Notes under the pieces: generated by a model
Seen by the model: only the letters and a program-made list of their open reading frames with translations
Database searches by the model: none
What the model was told of the DNA's origin: nothing
IMG/VR virus record: IMGVR_UViG_3300020037_003335
Location: 1 to 64,000 of that record
DNA: 64,000 bases
DNA from: a virus
Taxonomy: Duplodnaviria; Caudoviricetes
Direction: 5' to 3' (one strand)
Shown here: positions 49,401 to 64,000 of the stretch, in pieces
Position numbering within the stretch: position 1 is the first letter of the stretch
Layout of the letters: each line of letters opens with the position of its first letter
Made by a program: the position numbers and the translations under genes

Positions 49401-52400
49401 AGAGATACGAGTAGAAGGTGATGATATAGCTGAGTACAGACAAAACAGAGTATTCTCAACAGCTTCATCTAACGTAGAGACATCTAGAAATATAGGTGCT
49501 AATGAACAAATAGATGATGCTCCTAAATATATACGTGCAGATCCAGCTAATCCAAATGAGTATACAATATCTATAGCTGTACATGGAGAGCACTATATAG
49601 TAGAGAAAGAAGACGCGGATAAAGAAGCTGTGTATGCTCCAATAGAATTGCCTAAACCGCCAGACGGCTATGATCCTACAAATAATAGCCCTGAAAATAA
49701 CGAGTATAAAAAGAAGTTAGAACTGTATTACAACGCAGAAGATTTATCAGATAAAGGATTAACTGAACAAGAAATTGCAGCTATAACAGAGTTTAGAAGG
49801 TACTCAGCTAACAACAGGTTCTTTACATGGACAGATGCTAATGAAACTATACATAAAAATATTGCAGGAAAAAAGTTATTTTTCCGTGCAGCTACATATA
49901 AGAATATACAAGATGCTGCTAAGACCAATCCTGATTTACAAAGCATTATAGATGATATAGATAATCAGTTAAAACTTATACAAGGGTCTTCTGAACAACA
50001 GCGAACAGCAAATACATTACAAGGTTTAATAGATGGAAATAATGTTATATTAATTCCATACGAAGTTGTTCCTGGTGTGAATGGGGGAGCTCCTACTATC
50101 AGACCTGTAAAAGGACTTAGTTCTACAGAGAAAAGATTTAATGCAAGTAATCCTAAAGCTAAAATTGAACCTAGAGTATTATACAGTTCAAGACCATTAG
50201 CAGACACTGTATACAAATCATGGAATAGTGCAGACAAAATTGTTACTACTGTTGTAAATGCTAACACTGAACTTGGTATAGAAGATTTTAATACAGCTAA
50301 AGCTGAGGTTGAAACTAAATTAGATATTGAATTAGTAGCTCCAAGTTCAATGGTGTTAGATGGTAAAGAAATAAGTGCTTTTGTGAAAAAATATGGTATA
50401 TCAATAACAGTTAATAAAAATGAAGTTAAAATACTGTACACATTAGATGGAGATAAGAAAGAACTTACCATATTAAATACACAAGCTGAATATAAAATAC
50501 TACACGCTTTAGGTAGAGATGCGCTTAAGCTGGCAGTAATAGGTGGCATATTAAAGAAGGTATACACAACTCAAACAAAAGAGTTAATTCGTGCACCTCA
50601 AGGTAATGCGTATTTACAGATTATTAAAATTAATAGAGGTGTACCTGTATACGCACAAAAAAGAATTGCAAGTAGCAATTCTAAACAAGATTTGAAAAAC
50701 GCTGAGCTAACTCCAGTGTATATGCCATTAAGTGAAGTACTACCTAATGAACCTGGATTACAATTAACTGTAGTAACTAGAAAGAATGCGGCAGATCACC
50801 CAAATGCAATAGCAGGTGACTTAGTTGTACTAAGTTCTAATGATTTACGTTTACCTGTAGTAACATCTCTATTCTCTGATGAAACTGGAGAAGCTAAAAC
50901 ACATAAAGCTAATATGCTAGATGTGTTAGGTTTAACTATTTTAAAAGCTGTAGAAACAGAAGCTAAAGGTGATTTAGATGCGCTAAGAGAATCTGTTCCA
51001 TTTTCAACTGGTAAAATAACTCCAGTTAAAATACAAGTAGGTAATGAAGAAGTAGACATAAATGGCTACGGTATACTACCTACTGATATGGGGCAAAGCA
51101 GAGATGGTGTAGGAGCTTTAAACTTTTACTTAAACTTTGGTAAATATACTGAAAGCCATTTAGCTAGTAAAGAACGTAATCAAATTTATATAGGTCAAGG
51201 AGATCTTGTATTTGTATACAATACAAGAGTTAATGGAGTTAAAACTCCTAAGACTACTAGAATAAAACTTAGCAGCTTAATTAGAACAGATGCTGAGGGA
51301 AATAGGTATGTTAACTTGCCAGCCTTATTTGCAAGTGCTACTAATGCTACGACTGAAGGCAGAGCTCTAATAGAACTAGAAAACTATTTAAACAGTAAAC
51401 GTATAAACGTACATAAGAAATTATTAGAATCAAGCTCTGGTGTTACATACATACCTTCAGTTAAGAAAAATGATGCAGGAAATATAACCACTGAAAGTAC
51501 ATTACAATACACAAAAGAAACAGTACCATACAGTGTATGGGCAGCAAAAAATATTGTAAGAACTAACCATGATCCTAAAGCTGCAAGAAGAACTATACAA
51601 AGAAATCTAGTACATGATACATCATTTATATCTGCAGAAAACGCTGCATCACTAGCCGCAGACATACTGAAAGCAGAAGCTGCTAAAGAAGAAGCAAGAA
51701 AAAAACAAGAAAAAGAAAATCTTGCTGCATATACAGCTGCTGCAGCTAGTGCTAAACATACATATAGTAATTTAGCTGAATTAAAAGCGTTATTAGATAC
51801 GGATGTGTTTATGAAATCAACATTAACTAAAGGCACTAAAGCGGCATTAAAAGGTGTTATAAATTTAGCTACAACACTTGCTTCTATAGACCCTTCTAAT
51901 ATAGCAACATTAAACAGTATTGGAATATATTTTAGTACGTCTGCTACTCCTATAACTACTGTAACTGCTGCAACTGCGCCTGTAATTACTGGTAATACAT
52001 ACAGTACAATAAAAGAGTTATTAGATATACTACAAGTTGAAATTGCAAATAAAACCGTATTAGGCAAAAAATCTAGTACAAAAGCTTTAGCTGGCGTGCT
52101 AAAAATAAGTCCTGATATTAATAAAGTAGTGCTATCTCCAGAGCACGTAAAATTATTAGAAGCTAATGGAATTTATGAAGCAGGAAAAGCACCAGCAGCT
52201 ACTCTAACACCTCCACCTCCACCCGCACCTATTATAACTGCAGGTAACCCAGCGGAAACAGCTTATAGTCATATTTTAAAAATGGTTGGTAATGCGGAAT
52301 TTATGATAGCTCTAGACCTGGCAAATAGAAACAGCAGCAAATTTTTAAAAGACTTTGCTGCCGATAAAGATAAATTTCAAGAAAATGTTGATAATGAATT

Positions 52401-55400
52401 AATAGCTGAAATAAGTGAGCTAAATGATGCATTTGAATTATGGAAAGAAGAAGCTGCAAAAGCTGCTATTACTGCACCTACAGATGATGATGGATTTAGT
52501 ATGAGCAGATTTAAAGACGCAACTAAAAAAGCTATTCAACTTGCAGAAGCTAAACGCAACATGGCTGCTATCTTCGGTGAAAAGTTTGCTGATGAAAATG
52601 TTCAAATGGTTGTAGGTTTAATACAAGGTGAAGGGTATGGAGCATTTACTGCTGATGGTAAAATATTACTGTCTAATTTAGCAGAAGCTGGAACGGAATA
52701 TCATGAAGCATTTCACCGTGTATGGAGAATGTATGTACCCAGTTCTAAACGAAGTGAATTAATTGCAGAATTTGAGACTCGTGCAGATAAAGAAGATGTA
52801 CTTGCAGCTGTTCGTGCTGCTGGATATAAAGGTAGTAGAGAGTATTTAATTGAAGAAGCTTTAGCTGAAGAGTTTAAATTGTATAGTGATAAATATAAAT
52901 ACAAAAATGGTAAACTTGTACCTAAGAATAAAATAGAGCGTTGGTTCGACAAATTAATAAAGTTCCTCAGAGCTTTAATAGGACGTCCTATACAGCAGCA
53001 ATTCTATGATGATATACTTGCTGGTAAATATAAGAACGTGGCACCTAAGTATACTTATAAGGCACGTGAAGCAGTTTACAGTAAACGAATTGCGTTTAAG
53101 GATTTACCTACTATTGATGTGAGTAGTGCAGATATTAATGCTGTTAATACAGCAATAACTGTAGACTTATTTCAAAATGAATTGGCAAAAGGTAATATAC
53201 ATATCTTATTAAATCCTCCAGCAAATGGTTGGGATACAATAGATTCTTATACTAGAGCGCTTGTATCGCAAGGTACAGCAGTACTAAAGAAATTTGTATC
53301 AGATCGTAGTAAAATTGTATACGGTAACTACAAAGATGTATACGGTGTCCCAGCATCAAGTGGACTTTCTTTAGGCATATCGCATATATTATCATTAATT
53401 AATAATGATAAACTTAATGCTACAGAAAAGTATTATTTAGTAAATTCAACAGAAGCTGTCCTATCGATAGCTAATAATGGAAATTTAGAGCTGATGATAA
53501 AAGAGCTAATGAAAAATACTTCAATGCTGCAAGTAGGAGAACAGAAAACCATAGCTAATATATCTGAATGGACAAAGAAATCTACAGCTGAAAGAATAGC
53601 TTACTTCGCAGTACAAGGTAATACTGATAAAGCTGTCATGGCAATTGGTAGTATTATACGTGCAAGTATACGAAGTAAATTAATAGATGATCCATCAGTT
53701 ACAGCTTTAAACACTATTAACGCTAATACAACAGAAAAACGATGGCCTACTTTAGATAGAGTGTTTTCTCAAACTATGAAAGATAGGATTAGTCCTCGCC
53801 CTATTGATTTAACAATGCTGTCTGTTTTACAAAAACATTTTCAGTTAGAGTCAGAGAAAGCAGCTCCGTCTACGGAAGAGCAAGATTCGTATGTGGCGTT
53901 ATTAAAAGTAGAATCATATAAAAACAGTAGTTCTTTTTATGTTCAATGGACAAAAGCTATTGCTAACATTGGAGGTAAATTAAAGTATGAAAGAAATGAT
54001 GGGTATGAAAATGAAAATAATGATGATGAAAATGATGAAACCTCTAATGATGAAGGTGTAGAAGAAGAGGGTATAAATACTAAAGAAGATGAAGTAGTAA
54101 GTAAAGATGGTGCATATGATAAACTTGTTTATGAAAAGAATCCATTATCATCTATAACTACTTTGATTAAACTACTTATCAAAAGCATTCCACAAAAAGA
54201 TGCAAGAGGAAATAATGTGCTACATCCTACATTAGGTGTAGTGATGGCTATTCCTTGGGAGTCGACTATTAATAAATTCATTAACAGTTTGGCTAATATT
54301 CCTACATGGGCTATGTGGAAAGAGTTTGAAAAGTTTGTAAAGATGACACCAGAGGTTTCAAGCATACTTAAAAATATTGAAGAAATAAAAACTTCAGCTG
54401 ATAAGTCGGATGTAAAAGTAAAACTTAACAGAGCGTTCGGGAATCATATTTACAATTTCTTGATAACTTTGATAAATAAAGATAAAATTGTTACAACTAG
54501 TGCTAACAGTAATACTGGAGATAAGAGATCGATAAATGCATGGAAAAATAATATGACAGCCATTGATGATCCAGCAGTATTAAATATACTAAAAGATCAA
54601 TTTGAATATGCATTTAAGGCTACTCATGATCCAGTACTTACAGCAAGAAGTGGACATAGTGGTAATGTTATGCCTATAACCAAAACAAATGAACTTCCAG
54701 ATGAAAAGCATACAATTAATAGAGATAAAGTTAATACTGCTAAAGAATATGCAGAGTATTTAGGTATCACATTAGATAGTGAAATATACGAAGCCGAATA
54801 TGCTTTTGATGAAGGTAAGAATATTTATGATACAGTAAAAGCTATCTACTTAAATGCTATGAACACTATGACCAAAGAGGAAAAAGATGCAGTACTTAGA
54901 AATCCAACTCAACTAGCTAATAAAATATTTGGCAGTGATGCTGAATTTGGAGGAACTGCTGTAGGCACTAAGATAGAAGCGTTAGCTAAAAAACAAGCTA
55001 AGTATTCTAGAGATGTATCTCAATCAATTACCAGTAACAATAAGAAATTATTTGCAGCTAACTTGAATAGTGCTATGACGGTAACTTCTGATGGATTAAA
55101 CTACATAAGTAGCTTAGAAGAAGGAGAAGTAAATAATTATATTCAAGATGAATTAACTAATAGATATCAAGAGTATTATGGTAAAGAAGACTTGTTGACT
55201 GCTAATGCTGAAACATGGTTAGAAGCCACTTTGTATAGAGAAGGAACGGGCATTAAACGACATCCGATACACCTAGCTAGAACTAAATTAATGCTATTAA
55301 AATATTCTGGTGTGTTTAACAGTAACTCTGTAAGCAGCGTGCTACTACGAAATAGTATTACAGGCAGTAGAATTGAATTGTCTGTACTAGACAGTATAAA

Positions 55401-58400
55401 AAATACTATGGTAACTGTTGACCCTACTAATATTGATAATATTAGTAGAACTGAAATAGCTGCACATAATGTTAATTTAGCAGCTGATGGTGTAGTACGA
55501 GTTATACAGCACGCAGATAGAAGTATGGCGTATGGAATAAAATATGATGTTGGTTCAGATAATATATCAGGTACTTTGATAGAGCATTTAGAAGCTTTTA
55601 CAAACACTGTATTAAACCAAATAGCTGACAAATCAAAGACCACGGCAACATATACTGGTAAGAATATTAAGAATATGGCAACACTAAATTCAACTATTAC
55701 TCCACAAATGTTTGGTGTACTAGACGAGCTAGTTATTTTTTTACATGAAACACATAATGCACGATTAGCTGATAAATCGAAAATTACATTTGATGCATAC
55801 GTGAAACTCTTGCCAGATTTGATTTCTAAATACACATCTACTGAAAAGCAAACCAATTCTGTTCTTACATTCAGTGGATCAATACAAATAGTAGACGATG
55901 TTACTAGGTATATAGGAGTTAAACAAACTGAGTTTATGACTGATTATGTTAAGCGTAACTTACACTTAACAAAGAAAATAAGAAAATACAACACTGAAAC
56001 AAAGAAGCCTACTGACATGTATGTAGGAAGATATATTTCAACTAAAGAATTTGATAACTCAACTGCAGCGCAAGAAGCGGTGAATAAAATAATAAATAAA
56101 TCTTGGGCACAAATGTATCTTGGACATATAGAAGAAGTATTATTGTTTTCTGGTAATGCAGATTTGTATGGTACAGCAGAAAATATGTTTAAACGTATGA
56201 GTGCACAGTCATCTACTGGTATTGTTAGTACAGCTACAGCAGAGTTCTTAGATGAGATTGTTGCAGTAAATAAAGCTGCTTTGTCAACTGCGAATCAAAA
56301 TTTAAAATTAGACGCTACTCCGTACACTAGTCCTACAACGACAAAGAATTTTGCACTTATACAAGAAGTAATTGCTAAAGAAGAAGAGTTTACTAATAAG
56401 AAATTAGGAGACGAAATCTATGCTGCACATTATGCTTATAACTATGACTTACAAAGACTGTTAGGAAAATCTTCTGCTGAAGCTAAAGCCACAGCTAAAA
56501 GAATTGCTGAAAATATGTCTAAAGACTTCAAAGATAATATTAATGAAAATGATGGACAGTCTTGGTTAAACATATTTGCGTATCGCCAATACTTAAAAAG
56601 TGTGGATAAATGGACTGATCGTCATCAACAATCGTTTGACTTTGAAATGCTTGTTTTAAATGATATGATCAGAGTAAAAGATAATATAACCAAAGGGCTA
56701 ACAGCTGAAGCTGACATTACATACACACCTTTTTCTGTACTTGTTGCTCAGATATTACATCCAGATTGGGGAATAACCACAGAAAGTTATAATGGGATAG
56801 TAGCTGGAAGAGCGTCAATTGACGGGGAATTAGTTGAACCAAAAGCATTTGTAGATAGTATAAACAAATGGTTAACAGAAACAAGAGAAGGATTTGCACC
56901 ATTAAAACCACAGTATACTGGACCAGTATGGTTAGACAAGAATCATAAAACAATAGATAGTACTAAAAAGATAACTGTTACTGGAATAAGAAAAACTTCT
57001 TATGATGTACTACTTCCAAGTATGTTACGTGGAGAAGAATTTACTTCACGTCGTAAGTTTGCTGATCTTATGCTTAACATGCATGTTAATGGAATTGATG
57101 TACTACATATGGAGTCAGCAGCTAAATCAGGGACTAAAACTCCAATTCCATTATGGAATAGAGATGCTAATGGAACCATTTCAACCCTGAATGACAACTT
57201 GTACACCCATAAAAATCACACATTCTTAGAGTGGCAGTACATGAAAGATCAGCAAAACATTGACACAGAACAGAAAAGTAAATTAAAAGATTCTACTCAA
57301 GCACGTAAAAATATGCTTGCTAACCAAACTCATCGTGGTGTACCAATTGATTTTCCTATGTATAGCATAAATGAAAACGGTGAAAAAGATTATATGAAAG
57401 AAGATGAATGGAAAGCAGCTTGGGATAATTTATCTGAACAAGAGAAATTAAATAGCAGTTCTTTATACACATCTTTTGCGGCTGTTATCGAAGTTCAAAA
57501 TGATTTATTACTGCAAGCTGTAGAAATGTTAGAGAAAGAATTAAAGATTAACAGTAATAATCCAGTAGAAGTAACAGAGCAAATTGTTAAAGTGTTAAGA
57601 GAAGCTGCAACAAAAAGAGAGTCTTCTGATAATATACTTAATGCTATTGAATCAATTATAGATCATGGTTGGGTTGATGTATTACCTAATAGAAATACTA
57701 TAGAACCTATACTAATGTCTTTGGTTAGTAATAATTTAATAACTGTAAAACGATTTGGAAATGCTGTACCACAACTAGCAAGTACAGGTATGGATTTAGT
57801 TGGAACAGTGCGTAAGAATAATTCAGCAACAGCCGAGTTAAAAACGTACCAAATTAATGAAAACGGTGAAACAACTCCAGCAGAGATTATAACTGTACTA
57901 CCAAAGCAGTATCAAAAAGCTGTACTTGCAAAGTATTCTAAAAGAGTGAAACGAGCACTTACATTATTTGAAGCTGTTGAGATGTTAAATGAGGATTTAG
58001 CAAGGGAAAAAAATGATCCAGAATATATGGAAATAGAAATATTTGCATTACGTATTCCTAACCAACAAATGAGTTCTAATGATGTATTCAGAGTTAAACA
58101 ATTTTATATTGGAACAAAAGAAAACTTTGTATATGTCCCAGCTGATATTGTAGTAAAAGTAGGTAGTGACTTTGACATAGATAAACTACAAATGTATTTC
58201 CCTAATATGGATAAAGATTTTAATGAAATTAGATACGAAGGTGGTGCATCATCATTAAGTGAAAGTAGTAAAACTACATTTGAATCAGAAATATCAGACA
58301 GTGAATTAGATGCCTACATGGGACACCTAATGCAAACAGGGCAAGTAGAAAAAGAAGATTGTAATAAAGCAGAAGATGGTGCAGTAACAGCTAACTTTAC

Positions 58401-58566
58401 TCCTGGTGGTAAGTGGGAAACAGTGAAAGATTTAAAAGGAATGCCTTCACATAAAGAAGGCGGTGTTGACCTACAAATCAATAAAGATGGTGATGTAACA
58501 TTCAAGAACACAAGTGGTGCAATAATAACAGCAGCTGCTGGTTTAGTAATTCCAAACATTAACTAA
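43435..58566 (+). CDS. giant virion RNA polymerase polyprotein (N-terminal part of core, including catalytic loop) with zincin domain
   Basis: 5043 aa; HEAFH at 52702; NDGQSW, PLKPQY, MESAAKSG, RIPNQ and GSDFDIDK (DFDID 58168-58182). Confidence 0.92.
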   Translation: MGKLDAMYAMMGDKPIRPRTSLSESDETNVIYGTTPQKELDTYTYEGLNYYNPTDPEASQEARADNQGYVDIIGKGLANMGVSLLKNVAEAPAYIATIATSPLVGVGTAMSGGNGWEAMGTYVFNNQYLQTVQGIKDNIDENVLKIYVPPSVQEGGLWDKFTSMQNMVSQGSEMMGFVLSMYVPGAVVGKLGWGTKLVAGLNAAEAVGDVGLGTKAFNMLAKNFVKGSDAVFGEAGIGKILAGEARAGTVTGEALGIATNVDDAAKLAQGTAASAEAVVSNLDAAKKMLVYTNNAARSTDTGLAIAFNTTLESASEATQSYRDIYDAAKAKGYSEQDARNAAASGATNVFGANMSILAVTNIIGEKFILDGFERVAKGADNNKVAKMIINDAIGDKTSNITELLKHNWFNQSKFGKTLVGKALEPAAKVGGKFAIGAVKEGIVEEGMQTNVSQVAKADALKGEKTFQREGWTFGTSSILTFINGISNYGTLFSEKGNQELAESILMGGIFAGAIEFGGGAIRSLSGETKKANAARKVGYDDLRNNFIYSFKSHNEYFQREPEKNTDGTPNPKAGKLILDQQGRPVLTAEAEGNMKKTEAVRLAQAAHADIITALDPDSVEAEFANFMLEYNVFVDMLSREGGSELMKQAIDGGHLEALIAARYKANNEGNEIDPAMLTSMVNRWKTLGKKTEDQLNFIRSTHSPEMYINYDKNDPKEAAMFKAFNDDMFNERLSNLALHEHVKQVRMDRMKSYEDAVKESAELQTKMDALSFNGAALTPEQVAIKTEYDAAQKMFDDYEKQRPLFSDILDENKAIPADAAPRIKAKYDKIKNKQKIANQGGFSDEMTQEELDFMDVYDKDTGKSQIDAANTYFATAKEVKKINDNPTHAYTKTNSERKLTEMQISAAKEAVTALEKDFETLNNTELGVAKKYKLVGPEFKAAWDKYKADKLKESQQAATDAKDAADMQAKTDGELASAGFDKDMRASLINHLIASGTAVSKDSAEAAQVVFKDLEFTLNTTALQQEYNAYTDKTTEEAKKKLREIEMLTKLAAHPGGWAIVMVQAMDNNGRYVYENGKPRFEKRIISKRAAKYVGKVNDREATRKLFPLMFDENGNKLDEQEVANKREALIATNTAASIAQAAALLSQSKKFVWTTKDKTVERHMEIRVSKDTAFYSKAEVQKHISKFNTSSDYYSNINADGSKKFVKDAKGKDTKKLVENPRNARLRMDEASVDWDQMRGGFGPAIYVGRISKRSLVLSMAPVNKNIVLASNKMKEALAQRQAMIKALEDVRKYNTDLNKSVKNKTAALQTKLNALPKTQNTLAAIAREARLLAYEIEGLTIKIASAENKKNKFKKQDGKLAKDAQSDIDKLNALKEEKDKRLAEIPAIRQALEAEISNAIANINVIKKQIEEHQQEAANLVAYNDAAGLLISTLGSLSEEDIYKLDPSDINSLLTSEGKDLLDVYYQQVKEDLTGKLIVNRAVDKIIVDKENELKAYNKSKQEFEKQLANRKAFNEKLKAITTADVTSDTADALNNLLTAYLQIHNNQYKDAPKALATSIKDSTVKYIRYIEDLLVDIGHDRVIPNFNNAQVAELKLKLETTLTRLKSIAAASTIVEAYSSLADVDNYPASDDLQQAINAVGKKVESYLDLEESLTNILQDLTAIYDFTIDLTKDTKKEIRAKIEATIKNILDSRKEAEKIDANIKAKIAGLDSNINKVNKELQVLQNAAMTDIDFETGAIKTANDEVVIDNFRDLYLAELKASKLAELSEIQKVAGDLQAPIKTTLDDLTKQRKELEKELLQSILSNKEVTATKKLTSFLQLIPQFEKQFNSDSAALLQTVRAVFSRSKTIDVASTASDKKDEEVLASMLNPSTALTLLNRYIADFNVTANSENQISPITEAEYKAVVVTFIDALDAGTKAATEGVLTKLRTTITSIDRVQSIAVDLASKLIVDMDKFSADIARRTQVALNKADRDNGDATYIDDEEIRVEGDDIAEYRQNRVFSTASSNVETSRNIGANEQIDDAPKYIRADPANPNEYTISIAVHGEHYIVEKEDADKEAVYAPIELPKPPDGYDPTNNSPENNEYKKKLELYYNAEDLSDKGLTEQEIAAITEFRRYSANNRFFTWTDANETIHKNIAGKKLFFRAATYKNIQDAAKTNPDLQSIIDDIDNQLKLIQGSSEQQRTANTLQGLIDGNNVILIPYEVVPGVNGGAPTIRPVKGLSSTEKRFNASNPKAKIEPRVLYSSRPLADTVYKSWNSADKIVTTVVNANTELGIEDFNTAKAEVETKLDIELVAPSSMVLDGKEISAFVKKYGISITVNKNEVKILYTLDGDKKELTILNTQAEYKILHALGRDALKLAVIGGILKKVYTTQTKELIRAPQGNAYLQIIKINRGVPVYAQKRIASSNSKQDLKNAELTPVYMPLSEVLPNEPGLQLTVVTRKNAADHPNAIAGDLVVLSSNDLRLPVVTSLFSDETGEAKTHKANMLDVLGLTILKAVETEAKGDLDALRESVPFSTGKITPVKIQVGNEEVDINGYGILPTDMGQSRDGVGALNFYLNFGKYTESHLASKERNQIYIGQGDLVFVYNTRVNGVKTPKTTRIKLSSLIRTDAEGNRYVNLPALFASATNATTEGRALIELENYLNSKRINVHKKLLESSSGVTYIPSVKKNDAGNITTESTLQYTKETVPYSVWAAKNIVRTNHDPKAARRTIQRNLVHDTSFISAENAASLAADILKAEAAKEEARKKQEKENLAAYTAAAASAKHTYSNLAELKALLDTDVFMKSTLTKGTKAALKGVINLATTLASIDPSNIATLNSIGIYFSTSATPITTVTAATAPVITGNTYSTIKELLDILQVEIANKTVLGKKSSTKALAGVLKISPDINKVVLSPEHVKLLEANGIYEAGKAPAATLTPPPPPAPIITAGNPAETAYSHILKMVGNAEFMIALDLANRNSSKFLKDFAADKDKFQENVDNELIAEISELNDAFELWKEEAAKAAITAPTDDDGFSMSRFKDATKKAIQLAEAKRNMAAIFGEKFADENVQMVVGLIQGEGYGAFTADGKILLSNLAEAGTEYHEAFHRVWRMYVPSSKRSELIAEFETRADKEDVLAAVRAAGYKGSREYLIEEALAEEFKLYSDKYKYKNGKLVPKNKIERWFDKLIKFLRALIGRPIQQQFYDDILAGKYKNVAPKYTYKAREAVYSKRIAFKDLPTIDVSSADINAVNTAITVDLFQNELAKGNIHILLNPPANGWDTIDSYTRALVSQGTAVLKKFVSDRSKIVYGNYKDVYGVPASSGLSLGISHILSLINNDKLNATEKYYLVNSTEAVLSIANNGNLELMIKELMKNTSMLQVGEQKTIANISEWTKKSTAERIAYFAVQGNTDKAVMAIGSIIRASIRSKLIDDPSVTALNTINANTTEKRWPTLDRVFSQTMKDRISPRPIDLTMLSVLQKHFQLESEKAAPSTEEQDSYVALLKVESYKNSSSFYVQWTKAIANIGGKLKYERNDGYENENNDDENDETSNDEGVEEEGINTKEDEVVSKDGAYDKLVYEKNPLSSITTLIKLLIKSIPQKDARGNNVLHPTLGVVMAIPWESTINKFINSLANIPTWAMWKEFEKFVKMTPEVSSILKNIEEIKTSADKSDVKVKLNRAFGNHIYNFLITLINKDKIVTTSANSNTGDKRSINAWKNNMTAIDDPAVLNILKDQFEYAFKATHDPVLTARSGHSGNVMPITKTNELPDEKHTINRDKVNTAKEYAEYLGITLDSEIYEAEYAFDEGKNIYDTVKAIYLNAMNTMTKEEKDAVLRNPTQLANKIFGSDAEFGGTAVGTKIEALAKKQAKYSRDVSQSITSNNKKLFAANLNSAMTVTSDGLNYISSLEEGEVNNYIQDELTNRYQEYYGKEDLLTANAETWLEATLYREGTGIKRHPIHLARTKLMLLKYSGVFNSNSVSSVLLRNSITGSRIELSVLDSIKNTMVTVDPTNIDNISRTEIAAHNVNLAADGVVRVIQHADRSMAYGIKYDVGSDNISGTLIEHLEAFTNTVLNQIADKSKTTATYTGKNIKNMATLNSTITPQMFGVLDELVIFLHETHNARLADKSKITFDAYVKLLPDLISKYTSTEKQTNSVLTFSGSIQIVDDVTRYIGVKQTEFMTDYVKRNLHLTKKIRKYNTETKKPTDMYVGRYISTKEFDNSTAAQEAVNKIINKSWAQMYLGHIEEVLLFSGNADLYGTAENMFKRMSAQSSTGIVSTATAEFLDEIVAVNKAALSTANQNLKLDATPYTSPTTTKNFALIQEVIAKEEEFTNKKLGDEIYAAHYAYNYDLQRLLGKSSAEAKATAKRIAENMSKDFKDNINENDGQSWLNIFAYRQYLKSVDKWTDRHQQSFDFEMLVLNDMIRVKDNITKGLTAEADITYTPFSVLVAQILHPDWGITTESYNGIVAGRASIDGELVEPKAFVDSINKWLTETREGFAPLKPQYTGPVWLDKNHKTIDSTKKITVTGIRKTSYDVLLPSMLRGEEFTSRRKFADLMLNMHVNGIDVLHMESAAKSGTKTPIPLWNRDANGTISTLNDNLYTHKNHTFLEWQYMKDQQNIDTEQKSKLKDSTQARKNMLANQTHRGVPIDFPMYSINENGEKDYMKEDEWKAAWDNLSEQEKLNSSSLYTSFAAVIEVQNDLLLQAVEMLEKELKINSNNPVEVTEQIVKVLREAATKRESSDNILNAIESIIDHGWVDVLPNRNTIEPILMSLVSNNLITVKRFGNAVPQLASTGMDLVGTVRKNNSATAELKTYQINENGETTPAEIITVLPKQYQKAVLAKYSKRVKRALTLFEAVEMLNEDLAREKNDPEYMEIEIFALRIPNQQMSSNDVFRVKQFYIGTKENFVYVPADIVVKVGSDFDIDKLQMYFPNMDKDFNEIRYEGGASSLSESSKTTFESEISDSELDAYMGHLMQTGQVEKEDCNKAEDGAVTANFTPGGKWETVKDLKGMPSHKEGGVDLQINKDGDVTFKNTSGAIITAAAGLVIPNIN

Positions 58567-58567
58567 G

Positions 58568-60502
58568 ATGCAAAAAGCAACAAAAATAGAAGCACAAGGA
58601 GGGGAGATAGTAATAAGAAACAATTTTGATGATGTTGCTATTATCCCCAGAAACCTTGTAAAGAAATATCAGGCGTATATGAAAGCTGGCTGCGACGAAT
58701 GTATTGATGAGCTGGTAGCTAGTCTACCAGCTATGAGTCAGTATGCAGCTGATGGTACTGTGATACCACAAGGTAAAAAAGTTAAAGTAACACTGCCTGA
58801 TGGTGAGCAAGCTGAGTACTCTACAGATTCTGTAGAGTACAAAAACTTGTATAGCTCAGGTAAACTAGCTAACGTTGTTAAGGATAAAGTAACAGGTGAA
58901 GATACATACGTAATGCCATCATTAAAGGAAGTTGAAATAGTAGGTAAAGCTACAGGTGCTGCGAGAGATATGATTGATACAAAAAAGAGTTACTCTAAAG
59001 AGCAGTACATAAAAGAAAAACTACCTGCTTTTGCAGGTAGTTTAGGTGTTACGGCTGATAATTTAGGAGGGAATGCTGAAGGATATAAACGAACAATTAA
59101 TACCAAAGTAGCTGAAAACATATTTAAAAGAAAGCCAAATGCAAAAGAAAAAGACTTAACTCCGTATGAGTTAGGTGTGATTAATAATTCGGATTTGGCG
59201 TATAAATTAAAGCCTGATATCTTAGATAGATTTGAACAAGGATGGTTAAGTGTTGGTAATGCTGGTAGTCCTGTTGAATTTAAAAATCCTAACTTAACTC
59301 AAGATCAAGCTAGAGTGGAAGATACTCCATTAAATATACTAGCCCCAATTGAATACGGTTCTAAGGCTGTACAAGCATTGTACAAACCAGGTTATACTCT
59401 AAAAGATGCAGCAAAAGGAAAAGCTAATAATGCAGGAGTAGTGGAAGATATGGTAACTGACCCTTTAAATTTACTTGGCTTAGGCTTAATAGACGATTTA
59501 CCAAAACTAGGTAAAGCTGCAAAAGCTTTAAGTAAAGAACGTCAGATAGCTGAGAGTGTTGAAAATATGACTAAATTAGAAACACTTTCACAAGATGCTC
59601 CTAAATGGTTGTCCGACTTACTATCAGATACATCTTTGAAAAATAGAACAATTGCTAAAGAAGGTAATGCATATTTTAATGCTCTTGATAACCCAGAATC
59701 ATTAAAAAGATTAAAAGACTTTAGTAATGAATATGATGTAGATTTAGTTTCTGCTTATAAGAGAGCTAAAATAAGATGGGAAAACGGAATGACTATAGAA
59801 GGCCACTCTAGATTTAAAATTGCAGGGGATGAAGTATTTAAAGATAATATTACAGATGCAATAGGAGTATCTACATACGATAATGATTTTATATTAAAAG
59901 AATATCTTTCAAAGAATAAATCTAGAAATAGAAATTTATCTGAAGGTTCTGTTAATTATATAAATCAAAAAGCAGATATTCGTGATTTTCATAGGGTCGT
60001 ATGGCATGAATTATCTCATGACATAAATAAAGACATCATAGGTAACGATAAATTTACTGCCGCTGTTGCCAAAATTTTTGAAACAGATATAACTAAAATT
60101 GATAGAGCAGCAGCTGAAAAAGCACGGCAGATGAGTAAGAAGCTGTTTAAATCAAATTGGAAAGAAAGAACAGCTAAAGTTAATCAAAGTTTAGACGAGC
60201 GTATAGCAGAGGAAACAGCATACATAAGCAATCCTACTGAAACTTGGGCATTTTTATCTACCAATTTAAGACAAGATTTAAAAAGTGCTGGTATTATTAA
60301 AGATTATAATGAAATATTAACGCTTGAAAAATTAGACCAGGCTGTCAAGAATGGTACTACTATTTACAGTAGATTTGAGCCCTACATTAAAGATAAAGCT
60401 GAATTTATTAAGCTTTTTAATAAGATGACTTTGGGTATAGGTACTGCTGCAGTTACTACGCCCGCACTAAAAGACCAGCTAAACAAAAACAAATCTAAAT
60501 AA
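58568..60502 (+). CDS. zincin-like metallopeptidase cargo protein inserted between the two RNAP halves
   Basis: 644 aa; WHELSH at 60005 plus downstream PTETWA; N-terminal IEAQGGE and CDEC. Confidence 0.75.
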   Translation: MQKATKIEAQGGEIVIRNNFDDVAIIPRNLVKKYQAYMKAGCDECIDELVASLPAMSQYAADGTVIPQGKKVKVTLPDGEQAEYSTDSVEYKNLYSSGKLANVVKDKVTGEDTYVMPSLKEVEIVGKATGAARDMIDTKKSYSKEQYIKEKLPAFAGSLGVTADNLGGNAEGYKRTINTKVAENIFKRKPNAKEKDLTPYELGVINNSDLAYKLKPDILDRFEQGWLSVGNAGSPVEFKNPNLTQDQARVEDTPLNILAPIEYGSKAVQALYKPGYTLKDAAKGKANNAGVVEDMVTDPLNLLGLGLIDDLPKLGKAAKALSKERQIAESVENMTKLETLSQDAPKWLSDLLSDTSLKNRTIAKEGNAYFNALDNPESLKRLKDFSNEYDVDLVSAYKRAKIRWENGMTIEGHSRFKIAGDEVFKDNITDAIGVSTYDNDFILKEYLSKNKSRNRNLSEGSVNYINQKADIRDFHRVVWHELSHDINKDIIGNDKFTAAVAKIFETDITKIDRAAAEKARQMSKKLFKSNWKERTAKVNQSLDERIAEETAYISNPTETWAFLSTNLRQDLKSAGIIKDYNEILTLEKLDQAVKNGTTIYSRFEPYIKDKAEFIKLFNKMTLGIGTAAVTTPALKDQLNKNKSK

Positions 60503-60503
60503 C

Positions 60504-63500
60504 ATGGGGTGTAAATTTAAATATAACGGACAAACATACGAGAGTGAGGCAGACTTAAAAGCTGTGCTTAGACAAGAACTGAAAGCTAATACAGCAAAAG
60601 TTAGAGATGGTGATAAGCAACCAACTACAAATTCTATTGGTAAAAATGAAAGCGTACTGGGTACTGATAAATCACTGTATATATCAGTGCCTAAGTCACA
60701 GTTTTTGAGAATTTTAACTGTGGACGGACTAGGGTTAAATTATCAGGAAATGGCTGCAGAACAGTCGGACTATAATGCTTATTACACTAAAGAGCATTTA
60801 ATATATTCTAAATCTGATGACACTATGTTAGACAATAATACTGTAAGAATAGAAATAAATGCTGAATATCTAAACAAAGATGCGTCTAATGAATCTGATA
60901 ATTATGTGGCAACTTCGTCAACTATTCCTTATGCTGCATTTAGAAGTATGACTGTAAATAATCAAAATGTAAAAGATAACCTTATCAGTATTTACAAAAC
61001 ATTTCCAGATGGTCAGATAAATGTAAATGATTTTGCGCAACACATAAAAGTTGAAAATAAGCCATCAAATAAAACTCCTGGCAACATTACATTAGATCCA
61101 ATTAAGAAAAGTGCAGGTATAAACCAGGCGGCTAATATTAGAGAGCAGTTACGCAAAAATTATTTAAGTAAACTATTTAATGTTAAAGCTTCTGATGCCA
61201 AGTTAAATTTTAATTTAGGCAATAGTACCAGAGACGCTTTTATTAATATGCATAACGCATACAATAATACAATTGTATCTCAAGCAATTAAGTTAGCCAA
61301 TGAAGACGAGTACTCTAAAGCTATTACCCTATTAAAATCTCATAATCTACAAGGTGCGATATCTGATTTATTGATTATTAAGCATAGATATACAGAGTCT
61401 TATGATTCTATTTTAGAAAATTTAAAAAGTTATAATTTATCTCAGAATATAATTACAGATGTAATATCCAAGTTATCTACGTTACCTTTAAAAGGACTTG
61501 CCACAAAAGCTAATTTTAGTTTCATTGCTACTCAACCAACTACAAACACTACTACACAGCAGCCAGTTGTAGATGAAATCACTATTCAGAAAATGGCTGA
61601 GATTATGAAAGAGATTTATCCAGAAGCTGTTACTGATCAATCTCAATCTGTTACTACTGATGATAAGTTTATGGCAGCTAAAATGGTAGTTGATTTTGCT
61701 AATGGTACAGTAGATACACTTCCTGTTACATATGCTAGCTTGTATATAGCTTGGTTTAGAAATACACCTTTAGTACAAGCTGGTATTAAAGCTTATGGGG
61801 GAAGTGAAGAGGCATTAGTACAAGCTATTGGTGAACAAGCAGTTGTACAAAAAGGTAAGGCTTGGACATGGTGGAAAAAGTTTTTGGCTTGGTTACTAAA
61901 CTCAGCTAATGAATTATCTGATTTATCGAAAACTGAGTTACGTAATATCTTAACAGATGCTTTTTTAAGTAGACAAGATATTACTGCAACTTTAAACGGA
62001 ATTGTTTATTCTAAAGATCAAGTTAATGGAGAGTGGGCACCTGTTGATTTAGATATTGAATTTCCTATTGTGTATCCAAGTGACAAGGCGTTTAAAGCAG
62101 CACTTGATGCTGAACAAGCAGCTAAGGTTAAAAATGATGCTATGATTAAACCTGCGTGGAAAAATAATAAACGAGCTGCTTTAGAGAATAGATTGTTAGA
62201 TATGCATAAAGCTATTGCTTTACATCCTGTAAATGCACAAAATTTACTTGCACCTGTGTCTACAGTTATTACTAAAGGTATAGTAGAGAAATTAGGCATA
62301 AGAGCTAAACATAAAACTCGTGGTGCAGTTATAGACCCACTGTCTAATATTAATGCTAGTATTGCAATGGTACAAGGTAAACAAGGTGTAGGTATAGTAG
62401 CTAATGCAATTAACACTAAAGCTGCTTTAACGGGAGTTGATGCTAAATTAACTCCTATGTACCCTGTACAAAGTCCTTTAAGTAATGATGAAAAACATAT
62501 TCAACTACCTATAAATTTACGAATGTTGGGAATTGAAAAAGTTGAATACGCTGACGGCACATTAGCGTATTCATTAGGTAAACTTGTAGACACTTTTGGT
62601 AACTCAATTATAGCTAATTTATCAGAATCTTTGACCCAACAAGTAGATAATGTTAAAGATCCCGTAGCAGTTGAATTAGGTTATACTTTAAAGACTTTAG
62701 GATTAACATCATACATACTTACTTTAGGAGTTCCACAAGAAGTTCTTGCAGGTCTTACAGCTAAAGGCGGTGTGGTTACAGCTTGGAATGATAGAGTAGA
62801 AGAAAATGAGAATTTGTTTCACAAAGGAGCTACTGAAGAATCTTATGAAGTTGTTGAATACACAGGTGAACCTAGAAAAATATCTACACGTTTTGAAGAA
62901 AGTAATTCTACATTGAAAATTGAGTTTATAAATAGTCTACTTAGAAAACAGCCCGTTCCATCTAAATATATTGAACCTGTTGTAGATAATAATGGAAGAC
63001 CTAAAGGGCATATACTTAAACACGAAGCACTTGATATTGATAACGTATCACTAGATAAATATGATGCAGTGAAATTGTTGTTTTATTGGGAATTAATTGA
63101 TCAAGCTAGAGCATACGGCAATACTATAAAAGCTTTAACTGCGGATACTAAAACACATAAATCTATTGATGCAGCTGCTCAACAGCAGTTACTGATTGAC
63201 CAGCAATTACTAGGTATTGAATCTATCGTAGATAAAGATGATATATCAAAAGTTATATCTTCTAGAGCTGCTTTAAAATCTAATACTAAATCTGTAATTA
63301 GTCCTTTCTTTAATATGCAGAGAAAGTATGGTGAATATTTTAGTAAATATTTTTACACGCACGAAAATGGAATCAGTGCTTATTTAGCTGCAAGTTTAAA
63401 AGCTAGGTATAAATTGTATAGTGGGGATAGACTTAACAGACTTATTAGTACAGCGCATAATGATTTTATGATTTACCTTATGACAAGAATGACCGCAGTT

Positions 63501-64000
63501 AATCCTAACGCTACAAGTAGTTTGGCAAAGTTTAATAACGTTAATGCTCCATTAGTTGGAGTAGATGCATTATTAAAGCATGGCGAAGGACTTAAAATGT
63601 CTGCTGTAAATAGTATATACAATAACTTAACTTTGATTTCTAAACAGCCTAATATAACGGCTTCTAGAGCTTACTACTATGCTCAGCCAGCTACTGTAAG
63701 AAATAATAATACTACAGCATTATACCAGAATGTAACACCTGAAATGGCTCGCTCATTACTTGACATATTTAGATTTGAACTAGGCAGAGTTATAAAAGCT
63801 GATGTTAATATAGATAATAATGTTAGTATCTACTTACAAAACATTCCATCTATAGATTTGATTATGTTTAAAGACTCTGCTATAACTACTTCGGCAGCTA
63901 ATAATTATATTGAAATATTTGAAGAGTTGCGTACCTTATCTCCAGGATTAATACAATTGTTTAACAGTATTTCATTATTTCAAGCTGGGTTAAATAATTC
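60504..64000 (+). CDS. C-terminal part of virion RNA polymerase (partial, runs off the window; absent from the ORF track)
   Basis: ATG 60504 (MGCKFKYNGQTY), frame open to the end; AALENRLLD...LHP (62175), GKQGVGIVA (about 62377) and VDNVKDP (62643) motifs. Confidence 0.88.
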   Translation, partial: MGCKFKYNGQTYESEADLKAVLRQELKANTAKVRDGDKQPTTNSIGKNESVLGTDKSLYISVPKSQFLRILTVDGLGLNYQEMAAEQSDYNAYYTKEHLIYSKSDDTMLDNNTVRIEINAEYLNKDASNESDNYVATSSTIPYAAFRSMTVNNQNVKDNLISIYKTFPDGQINVNDFAQHIKVENKPSNKTPGNITLDPIKKSAGINQAANIREQLRKNYLSKLFNVKASDAKLNFNLGNSTRDAFINMHNAYNNTIVSQAIKLANEDEYSKAITLLKSHNLQGAISDLLIIKHRYTESYDSILENLKSYNLSQNIITDVISKLSTLPLKGLATKANFSFIATQPTTNTTTQQPVVDEITIQKMAEIMKEIYPEAVTDQSQSVTTDDKFMAAKMVVDFANGTVDTLPVTYASLYIAWFRNTPLVQAGIKAYGGSEEALVQAIGEQAVVQKGKAWTWWKKFLAWLLNSANELSDLSKTELRNILTDAFLSRQDITATLNGIVYSKDQVNGEWAPVDLDIEFPIVYPSDKAFKAALDAEQAAKVKNDAMIKPAWKNNKRAALENRLLDMHKAIALHPVNAQNLLAPVSTVITKGIVEKLGIRAKHKTRGAVIDPLSNINASIAMVQGKQGVGIVANAINTKAALTGVDAKLTPMYPVQSPLSNDEKHIQLPINLRMLGIEKVEYADGTLAYSLGKLVDTFGNSIIANLSESLTQQVDNVKDPVAVELGYTLKTLGLTSYILTLGVPQEVLAGLTAKGGVVTAWNDRVEENENLFHKGATEESYEVVEYTGEPRKISTRFEESNSTLKIEFINSLLRKQPVPSKYIEPVVDNNGRPKGHILKHEALDIDNVSLDKYDAVKLLFYWELIDQARAYGNTIKALTADTKTHKSIDAAAQQQLLIDQQLLGIESIVDKDDISKVISSRAALKSNTKSVISPFFNMQRKYGEYFSKYFYTHENGISAYLAASLKARYKLYSGDRLNRLISTAHNDFMIYLMTRMTAVNPNATSSLAKFNNVNAPLVGVDALLKHGEGLKMSAVNSIYNNLTLISKQPNITASRAYYYAQPATVRNNNTTALYQNVTPEMARSLLDIFRFELGRVIKADVNIDNNVSIYLQNIPSIDLIMFKDSAITTSAANNYIEIFEELRTLSPGLIQLFNSISLFQAGLNN

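Follow-up and report, generated by a model that had tools for sequence, protein, structure and literature searches.

Polymerases of the gp66 type are the defining single-chain, two-barrel enzymes of the Crassvirales, and have been proposed to be relatives of the eukaryotic RNA-interference polymerases. In gp66 of phage phi14:2, the catalytic DFDID motif occupies residues 1361-1365, the bridge helix residues 1529-1559 and the trigger loop residues 1598-1636 (bioRxiv 10.1101/2020.03.07.982082). Variable boundaries of open reading frames (ORFs), polyprotein fusions and disruption by introns or frameshifts are already known for the RNA polymerase (RNAP) genes of crAss-like phages (PMC7886860; PMC10136315; bioRxiv 10.1101/2020.03.07.982082), and an intron-type interruption within the DxDxD motif itself has been reported (Yutin et al. 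2021; PMC7886860). In cyanobacteria, the catalytic barrel is part of the beta'1 subunit, and the rim helix, the bridge helix and the trigger loop are part of beta'2 (PMC10895346). Here we analyze a stretch of 64,000 nucleotides (nt), positions 1 to 64,000 of the IMG/VR virus record IMGVR_UViG_3300020037_003335 (hereafter, the window), the source of which is a crAss-like phage (116 kb) found in wastewater or activated sludge. Within it, the N-terminal part of a gp66-type polymerase is encoded at the end of one giant gene (ORF1) and the C-terminal part at the end of another (ORF3), with a complete gene (ORF2) between them.

We consider it probable that this polymerase consists of two proteins that associate non-covalently, and that the gap between their genes has turned into an exchange locus. 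A first-pass annotation made from the sequence alone had proposed an enzyme reassembled from two chains after ejection and a catalytic loop serving as a tolerated insertion site, an interpretation that is largely supported by the present analysis. The papers covered by a literature search contained no description of a conserved, selected two-gene enzyme of the gp66 type in which the cut separates the catalytic barrel from the bridge helix and the gap serves for exchangeable cargo.

The two parts of the polymerase

As had been read in the first-pass annotation, the 5043-amino-acid (aa) ORF1 (sequence FALRIPNQQMSSND ... VKVGSDFDIDKLQMYFPNM) carries the motifs RIPNQ and GSDFDIDK (the latter at aa 4910-4917, with DFDID at aa 4912-4916) and ends at a stop codon located 127 codons after DFDID. 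The later motifs, ALENRLLD, LHP..LLAP, GKxGVGIxA and VDNxKDP, are indeed encountered only in the ORF that starts at position 60504, and there only from residue 559 (ALENRLLD at aa 559, LHP..LLAP at aa 573-584, GKQGVGI at aa 625-631 and VDNVKDP at aa 714-720). The VDNVKDP motif is the most conserved one in the C part, with V195, D196 and V198 invariant and K199 and P201 nearly so.

Searches of PDB seeded with single sequences and with two profiles did not retrieve gp66, and predicted structure alone provided the link. No significant match to any of ORF1, ORF2 and ORF3 was obtained from Pfam or PHROGs, and a tblastn search against GenBank phages produced one partial match only, to a promiscuous zincin domain. 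A model of the ORF3 core, generated with AlphaFold2 from a 23-sequence alignment (mean predicted local distance difference test score, pLDDT, of 69), matched 6VR4 chain A, the gp66 structure, in a Foldseek search with an E-value of 8.7e-5, the sole match below E 0.001. With VIA-align, residues 551-1302 of ORF3 superposed on residues 1467-2107 of 6vr4_A with a Z score of 18.5 over 542 residues, the next entry scoring 5.1. The predicted fold thus places the ORF starting at 60504 where the earlier annotation had assumed it to belong, in the part of gp66 that follows the DxDxD loop and spans the bridge helix and the trigger loop. Since the matched region begins at gp66 residue 1467, after DFDID, the cut falls within the equivalent of gp66 residues 1366-1466. 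The placement of GKQGVGI and VDNVKDP on gp66 was derived from the alignment offset and is approximate at the level of individual residues.

The N-terminal counterpart was recognized in the same manner. Residues 4236-4733 of ORF1 matched residues 877-1195 of 6vr4_A with a Z score of 15.8 and 230 residues aligned (predicted structure, mean pLDDT 56), so that both polymerase parts are homologous to gp66. The matched gp66 range extends into the connector (residues 1095-1238) and presumably covers the first barrel. The following segment of ORF1, residues 4778-4942 (model residues 707-871), matched residues 353-483 of Escherichia coli beta', the non-virion RNAPs of AR9 and PhiKZ and cyanobacterial beta'1, with Z scores of 5-6.8. 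The matched AR9, PhiKZ and cyanobacterial chains are short and stop 18-130 residues past the barrel; judging from their length and the matched range, the jumbo-phage chains are probably N-terminal pieces of beta'.

The three ORFs occupy three successive frames, and both junctions have the form TAA-N-ATG with a 1-nt gap (ATT AAC TAA g ATG CAA and TCT AAA TAA c ATG GGG, respectively). The placement of a 644-aa gene between the two halves and the single-nucleotide gaps on its sides, as originally reported, are thus borne out. Its designation as a zincin gene derives from a conserved motif, sequence searches of ORF2 against Pfam, PHROGs and PDB having returned no match. Two other metagenome contigs of the Joint Genome Institute (JGI), L033 and L034, encode exactly the same ORF2 protein with the same neighbours and the same 1-nt gaps. 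The first of these shows 0 mismatches over 13.9 kb, and the second, obtained from a different sample, has 84 differing positions, all of them away from the junctions. The region is also present in Logan contigs of four wastewater and sludge studies, one of which (X12 record 13) crosses the ORF2/ORF3 junction with zero mismatches. Because two further assemblies have identical junctions, the split is not a misassembly. No second, unsplit gene of the gp66 type was seen among the ORFs of the contig.

Fused, interrupted and split relatives

A search of 1.8 billion representative sequences seeded with ORF3 retrieved P0013, a protein of 5096 aa in which LRIPNQQLSSTD...VKVGSDFDIDK (at residue 4088) and VDNVKDP (at residue 4401) are parts of one chain. 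To this we added a survey with a hand-made degenerate DNA pattern for LRIPNQQxSSxD, which covers one Crassvirales sub-clade and matched 22 IMG/VR loci. The frame could be traced in 21 of these, with DFDID (or D-G-D before an interruption) located 40 residues downstream of the pattern. In 17 of the 22 loci the same ORF continues to HP..LL.P, GKxGVG and VDNVK[DN]P. The assumption of the first-pass annotation that these motifs follow the DxDxD loop within one chain in crAss-like RNAPs therefore holds for P0013 and for these 17 loci, and in the window the enzyme is divided between ORF1 and ORF3 with ORF2 in between; the split point is, accordingly, not the norm of the clade. In the fused loci GKxGVG lies 97-277 residues past DFDID, compared with approximately 1,400 codons, distributed over three ORFs, in the window.

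Three of the 22 loci (L019, L020 and L024), as well as L003, contain a 220-aa LAGLIDADG ORF between GGD and FDIDK. An Rfam search detected no intron family in L001, nor in the LAGLIDADG-bearing L003 and L020, and is thus uninformative with respect to intron RNA. The L027 locus is cut off and falls outside the fused and interrupted classes. The L018 locus was considered as a second split, given a stop codon 55 aa after DFDID that is followed by unrelated tail genes, but it was judged to be a chimeric contig and was not counted.

Split forms were found in three further loci. In L004, which is approximately 89 % identical to the window, the ORF containing DFDID passes through the tail module that terminates ORF1 into 442 more residues with a HELSH motif; the next gene combines a 70-aa head of the ORF2 type with a body consisting of LysM and Amidase_2 domains, and is followed by a gene for a protein that starts with an ORF3 head and continues with a cpYpsA domain and the C part of the polymerase. 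In L005, a zincin-type ORF ending in LKDQLNKSKRKQ and a stop codon is separated by one nucleotide from MACKYTYEGQEY. In the third locus, L002, an ORF ending with an amidase is followed by one of 388 aa that combines the ORF3 head with the ORF1 tail, then by a gene resembling ORF2, and finally by a gene for a protein with ART-PolyVal, HEYAH and the polymerase C part; this contig is too short for the polymerase N part to be placed. The C part of L002 has approximately 39 % protein identity to that of the window, with dS (the synonymous substitution rate) saturated and the motifs intact.

In a quick, midpoint-rooted maximum-likelihood tree of the C part, the split forms are located on one side of a branch with a support of 100 in the Shimodaira-Hasegawa-like approximate likelihood ratio test (SH-aLRT), and the fused and intron-containing forms on the opposite side. 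Relative to L004, the N part has a ratio of nonsynonymous to synonymous substitution rates (dN/dS) of 0.126 and the C part one of 0.131, at a dS of approximately 0.5, that is, both halves are under equal purifying selection. From this clade pattern and the shared constraint it follows that the split is old, inherited and tolerated, although not the norm.

The gap between the two parts

The break lies in a linker that is already of variable length, 40-230 aa, in the fused relatives. The idea that the catalytic loop is an insertion site into which a whole gene was placed is upheld as far as insertion is concerned, but the break is located approximately 130 aa past the loop and more than one gene was inserted. 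The additional DNA, approximately 1,250 codons above the usual linker, is made up of the tail of ORF1, the whole of ORF2 and 550 aa at the start of ORF3. From DFDID to the bridge-helix motif, the order is a short linker, the tail, ORF2, the ORF3 head, a 300-aa cassette and a zincin-type domain of approximately 110 aa (Table 1).

In L002, L029 and L032 small separate ORFs end with the tail module, and L004 and L031 carry it internally. Its position differs between the assemblies L030 and L031, being at the N-terminus in one of them and internal in the other. Within positions 58366-58640, the tail (GMPSHKEGGVDLQINKDG..GLVIPN) resembles the ORF2 head (EAQGGEIVIRN..VAIIPRN), and the pair travels together in L002, L029 and L032. 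The ORF2 family has approximately 60 homologues and keeps H480, E481 and H484 of the HELSH motif (aa 480-484) and E558 invariant, as found in 16 homologues.

The DNA around the start of ORF3 is unusually similar among otherwise divergent loci: a linker block of approximately 160 nt is 96-97 % identical in L002 (2298-2455) and L004 (9966-10111), with far more diverged flanking genes. In the window the upstream 35 nt of this block form part of a coding sequence, but in L002 and L004 they fall between genes; the block looks like a recombination linker or a translation-initiation element. The ORF3 head encoded in it (60504-60620) follows the pattern M-x-(x)-C-x-[YF]-x-[YW]-x-G-x-x-[YF], which starts many separate proteins of the giant-gene block. 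Such a head begins the RNAP protein itself in L019 and L020, and in the genome analyzed here is found on ORF3 only; it may be an address or assembly tag.

The cassette that follows the ORF3 head gave a weak 2CompART match only (E 0.039) and is absent from some wastewater contigs. Its counterpart is a cpYpsA domain in L004 (E 7e-22) and an ART-PolyVal domain, next to HEYAH, in L002 (38.3 bits, cut-off 31.2). The zincin-type domain after the cassette occurs in hundreds of large phage proteins; HExxH is retained in 97 of 102 homologous domains, and VTYAS is found only in the window, P0004 and P0008.

Comparison with L004 by blastn revealed blocks of 91-97 % DNA identity with none between them, the breakpoints being 58554/58565, 58758, 60469, 60614-60626 and 61528-61539. 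These positions recur in the wastewater contigs as alternative joints, contig ends and a deletion of approximately 910 nt, so the locus is mosaic. Furthermore, in L029 and L032 a tail ORF, an ORF2-like gene and a head ORF occur together as a trio elsewhere in the giant-gene block, outside the polymerase, which suggests that the trio is a unit and entered the polymerase linker in a single lineage. A hidden Markov model (HMM) search of L029-L032 for the polymerase C part did not find it.

Genes for GIY-YIG endonucleases adjoin the trio in these loci (L029 8162-8914; L030 and L031 9286-10011; L032 1906-2580), which hints that homing endonucleases help to move the tail, ORF2 and head modules. It is possible, if on balance improbable, that the linker after the loop functions as a recombination-driven cargo dock with near-identical blocks of approximately 150-200 nt, in which the head and tail peptides would be tags for packaging and reunion and the effectors would enter the cell attached to the polymerase. 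The blocks in question are the tail end at 58554, the ORF2 head, and the spacer together with the ORF3 head (60469-60626); the cassettes include zincin, LysM-amidase, cpYpsA, ART-like and further domains, and the phages that exchange them are approximately 40-50 % identical elsewhere.

Upstream of the polymerase, ORF1 displays the opposite rearrangement. Its residues 57-759 resemble a separate upstream gene of L003 (L003 1-4513), and a zincin motif, HEAFHRVWRM, is located inside ORF1 at aa 3090 (nt 52702-52716). In L003, L019 and L020 the same HEAFH motif is found approximately 80 aa from the N-terminus of the RNAP protein. An upstream cargo gene has therefore been fused to the RNAP gene, leaving the polymerase N part fused to approximately 3,000 residues of the upstream protein, that is, fusion occurred upstream and fission downstream.

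The window makes up the opening 64 kb of one contig of 115,979 bp with a crAss-like gene order, in which a plus-strand module for TerL, portal and MCP is followed by the giant genes (33035-69054) and a minus-strand arm. The TerL, portal and MCP proteins match PHROGs 6681, 6547 and 11589, which are annotated as such (E 3e-85 to 2e-122). Past the window, the 1491-aa ORF4 (contig 64579-69054) corresponds to three overlapping ORFs of 805, 361 and 348 aa in L004 (14664-19151). The identity of ORF4 to these three ORFs is 89-97 %, reflecting either, once again, labile ORF boundaries in this block or indel errors in the L004 assembly. The 84 differences between L034 and the contig appear to cluster nearly all in a short stretch of ORF4, with listed positions 66054-66134, which suggests a local replacement or a hypervariable patch.

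Table 1. Features of the split polymerase locus; positions refer to the window unless another locus is named
Feature	Position	Strand	Description
ORF1	43435..58566	+	5043 aa; upstream cargo-type protein, zincin, polymerase N part and terminal tail module
ORF1 aa 4236-4733	56140..57633	+	Superposes on gp66 877-1195
ORF1 aa 4778-4942	57766..58260	+	Match to catalytic beta' barrel; LRIPNQQ from nt 58048, DFDID at 58168-58182
ORF1 tail module	58366..58566	+	GGKWETVKDLKGMPSHKEGGVDLQINKDG..GLVIPNIN-stop; PSHKEGG...GLVIPNIN
ORF2	58568..60502	+	644 aa; 70-aa head and body with HELSH...E; putative metallopeptidase
ORF2 head	58568-58758	+	Conserved, 70 aa
Conserved DNA linker block	60469..60626	+	About 35 nt before the ORF3 start and ORF3 head MGCKFKYNGQTYESEADLKAVLRQELKANTAKVRDGD
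ORF3	60504..64000 in the window, to 64559 in the contig	+	1351 aa; head followed by cargo cassette, then degenerate zincin domain and polymerase C part
ORF3 cargo cassette, aa 40-341	60621..61527	+	Strain-variable; joints 60614/60620 to 61528/61530
ORF3 zincin-type domain, aa 385-500	61656..62003	+	Degenerate motif VTYASLYIAWFRNTP; relatives have HEYAHxYIAWFRNTP
Polymerase C part, ORF3 aa 551-1302	62154..64000 (to 64409 in the contig)	+	Superposes on gp66 1467-2107
Candidate bridge helix, ORF3 aa 612-644	62337..62435	+	Contains GKQGVGI; 33-residue model helix 93-125, opposite gp66 1529-1559 by alignment offset
VDNVKDP, ORF3 aa 714-720	62643..62663	+	Towards the end of the stretch placed opposite the trigger loop of gp66
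ORF3-type heads elsewhere	L019 116-; L020 4586-; L029 8914-, 11935-; L032 2584-, 5731-; L005 597-
LAGLIDADG ORFs	L003 9273-9935; L020 9402-10064; L019 4855-; L024 1456-2118		Upstream frame reads S-L-L-K-F-P-L-stop

Explanations and known systems

The explanation that we favour is an enzyme assembled from two polypeptides. The N part at the end of ORF1 would contribute both barrels, the connector and the catalytic DFDID loop; the bridge helix and the trigger-loop region, along with the C-terminal domains, would come from the C part at the end of ORF3. The break is located in a surface linker, the length of which varies already among relatives with a single chain. A cargo block consisting of the tail, an ORF2-type gene and a head-cargo-zincin module would have lodged in this linker in the common ancestor of a small clade, bringing with it one stop codon and two start codons. 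Three separate products, perhaps translationally coupled, are the most likely outcome of translation, and the active enzyme would form by non-covalent association of the ORF1 and ORF3 proteins, similarly to cyanobacterial beta'1/beta'2 and the beta' pieces of jumbo phages. The conserved DNA blocks at the module borders would permit recombination, so that effector cassettes could be swapped between phages. By analogy with gp66, the two proteins are presumably packaged in the virion, ejected, and reunited after ejection.

Given that the stop, the single nucleotide and the start are arranged identically at both junctions and lead through successive +1 frames, the locus could alternatively encode one giant polyprotein, produced by programmed +1 frameshifting or ribosome hopping at both TAA-N-ATG sites, from which the zincin domains would excise the polymerase. 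Indeed, unknown expression mechanisms have been suspected for the fragmented RNAP ORFs in some groups of crAss-like phages (Yutin et al. 2021; PMC7886860), the gp66 preprint proposes that fused polyproteins are cleaved, possibly by a zincin-like protease (bioRxiv 10.1101/2020.03.07.982082), and the tail is read through in frame in L004. However, the ORF2 frame is open for just 6 codons ahead of its ATG, and the junctions vary from a 14-nt overlap in L004 to a 4-nt gap in L002 and the 1-nt gap in the window, which is an ill fit with a conserved recoding signal and makes the recoding into one chain unlikely. Moreover, the ORF3-type start with the same ATG and head comes after a 61-nt intergenic spacer in L002 and L004, junctions with a single nucleotide between stop and start also separate unrelated neighbours in this genome, L003 and L005, and a single chain would still hold approximately 1,250 extra residues that separate the catalytic loop from the bridge helix. 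The tail (PSHxxGG...IP.N-stop) recurs in L002, L029 and L032, even outside the polymerase, in a trio with the heads of ORF2 (..EAxGGE..IIP.N..) and ORF3 (M.C.Y.Y.G..Y), and it resembles the ORF2 head. This could instead mean that these modules tether or ligate the halves after translation, for instance through a split domain or a ligation system where the ORF1 tail meets the ORF2 head and the ORF2 end meets the ORF3 head, such that the enzyme is covalently or tightly linked through ORF2. This, too, we hold to be improbable: no known family of the Hint/intein or ligase type was found in scans of family libraries, L004 and L031 have the tail in an internal position, and the trio in L029 and L032 has nothing to join.

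It could further be argued that the split inactivated the virion polymerase and that the ORF1 and ORF3 proteins are kept as structural or ejection proteins, with another enzyme in charge of early transcription; the giant proteins have other presumed roles, and crAss-like phages of the Epsilon group lack the whole transcription block (PMC7886860). We find this very unlikely, considering that both parts retain every catalytic and family-invariant motif, that dN/dS has remained at approximately 0.13 in both since the divergence from L004 and L005, which are likewise split, and that the motifs persist across the split clade as far as L002. The least credible possibility is an artefact, namely an assembly error, a chimera or 1-nt indels that created the stop codons. 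The wastewater contigs do branch or end at 58554, and none among those listed from four runs bridges 58554-58595, but the identical junctions in L033 and L034, the second of them despite its 84 differences elsewhere, the Logan contig that bridges the ORF2/ORF3 junction, and the preservation of the stop codon after the tail and of the Met-initiated heads in L002, L004 and L005 make it extremely improbable. Two classes of self-splicing elements were rejected: no endonuclease family (LAGLIDADG or GIY-YIG) indicative of a group I intron with a homing endonuclease was found in the ORF1 tail, ORF2 or the ORF3 N-terminus, and an intein is at odds with two stop codons, two frame changes and the lack of a Hint family match.

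Several observations weigh against the two-protein enzyme and should be kept in mind. The barrel assignments in ORF1 have moderate Z scores because the ORF1 model is of low confidence (pLDDT 56), the survey pattern is specific to a single sub-clade, and the zincin-type domain of ORF3 is degenerate. The ORF3 protein carries an N-terminal extension of 550 aa and the ORF1 protein approximately 4,900 aa before the break, and reunion after ejection from the virion is a harder assembly problem than that faced by a cellular enzyme.

If the two-protein enzyme is confirmed, it would provide a ready-made design for expressing a gp66-type polymerase in halves, and would raise a question that is absent from the cellular cases, namely how two pieces of an enzyme are co-packaged, ejected through the tail and reunited. 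The mosaic cargo region marks the place where these phages store exchangeable effectors, and knowledge of such a locus should aid the annotation of the giant genes, the majority of them lacking an assigned function. These aspects should be of interest to researchers working on crAss-like phages and on two-barrel polymerases.

The closest described system is gp66 of phi14:2 (PDB 6VR4). The window shares with it the DFDID motif within a double-psi beta-barrel of the beta' type, folds that match in both the N and C parts, the location of the genes in a giant-gene block after the structural module, and a zincin domain upstream, as reported for gp65. The differences are that gp66 is a single chain of 2,180 residues, whereas the chain in the window is cut approximately 130 residues after DFDID, that ORF2 and 550 residues of cargo precede the bridge helix in the window, and that the resemblance is confined to the predicted fold, with no detectable sequence similarity. 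The interruptions by group I introns and LAGLIDADG ORFs (L003, L019, L020 and L024) break the same gene family near the catalytic motif; in the window, in contrast, DFDID is intact, the break is located 127 codons downstream, and the proteins encoded in the gap are conserved, selected and have starts of their own, with no homing endonuclease among them.

A possible parallel to the gap is offered by the polyvalent proteins of phages and conjugative elements, reportedly described by Iyer, Burroughs, Anand, de Souza and Aravind in 2017. Those proteins, which are delivered along with DNA, have arrays of unrelated effector domains next to zincin-type peptidase domains, and Pfam families defined for them are found at the equivalent position in L002 (ART-PolyVal) and L004 (cpYpsA). 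In the window, the array is inside a polymerase gene and spread over three ORFs, the cassette has no significant family match, and the zincin motif has been lost.

The split itself is mechanistically anticipated by the split beta' enzymes, that is, rpoC1/rpoC2 of cyanobacteria and plastids and the beta' pieces of PhiKZ and AR9, in which the catalytic double-psi barrel is likewise encoded by one gene and the bridge helix by another, and the pieces work as a non-covalent complex. This likeness is a functional analogy and not family membership: in those enzymes the second barrel resides on a separate beta subunit, whereas ORF1 holds both barrels; their split genes are adjacent with nothing inserted, whereas the gap in the window holds a gene and cargo domains; and the enzyme encoded in the window is presumably packaged in the virion and ejected. 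As a natural two-piece form, it would nevertheless indicate that gp66-type polymerases, too, can be broken where the catalytic barrel joins the bridge helix, the seam at which those of cyanobacteria, plastids and jumbo phages are cut.

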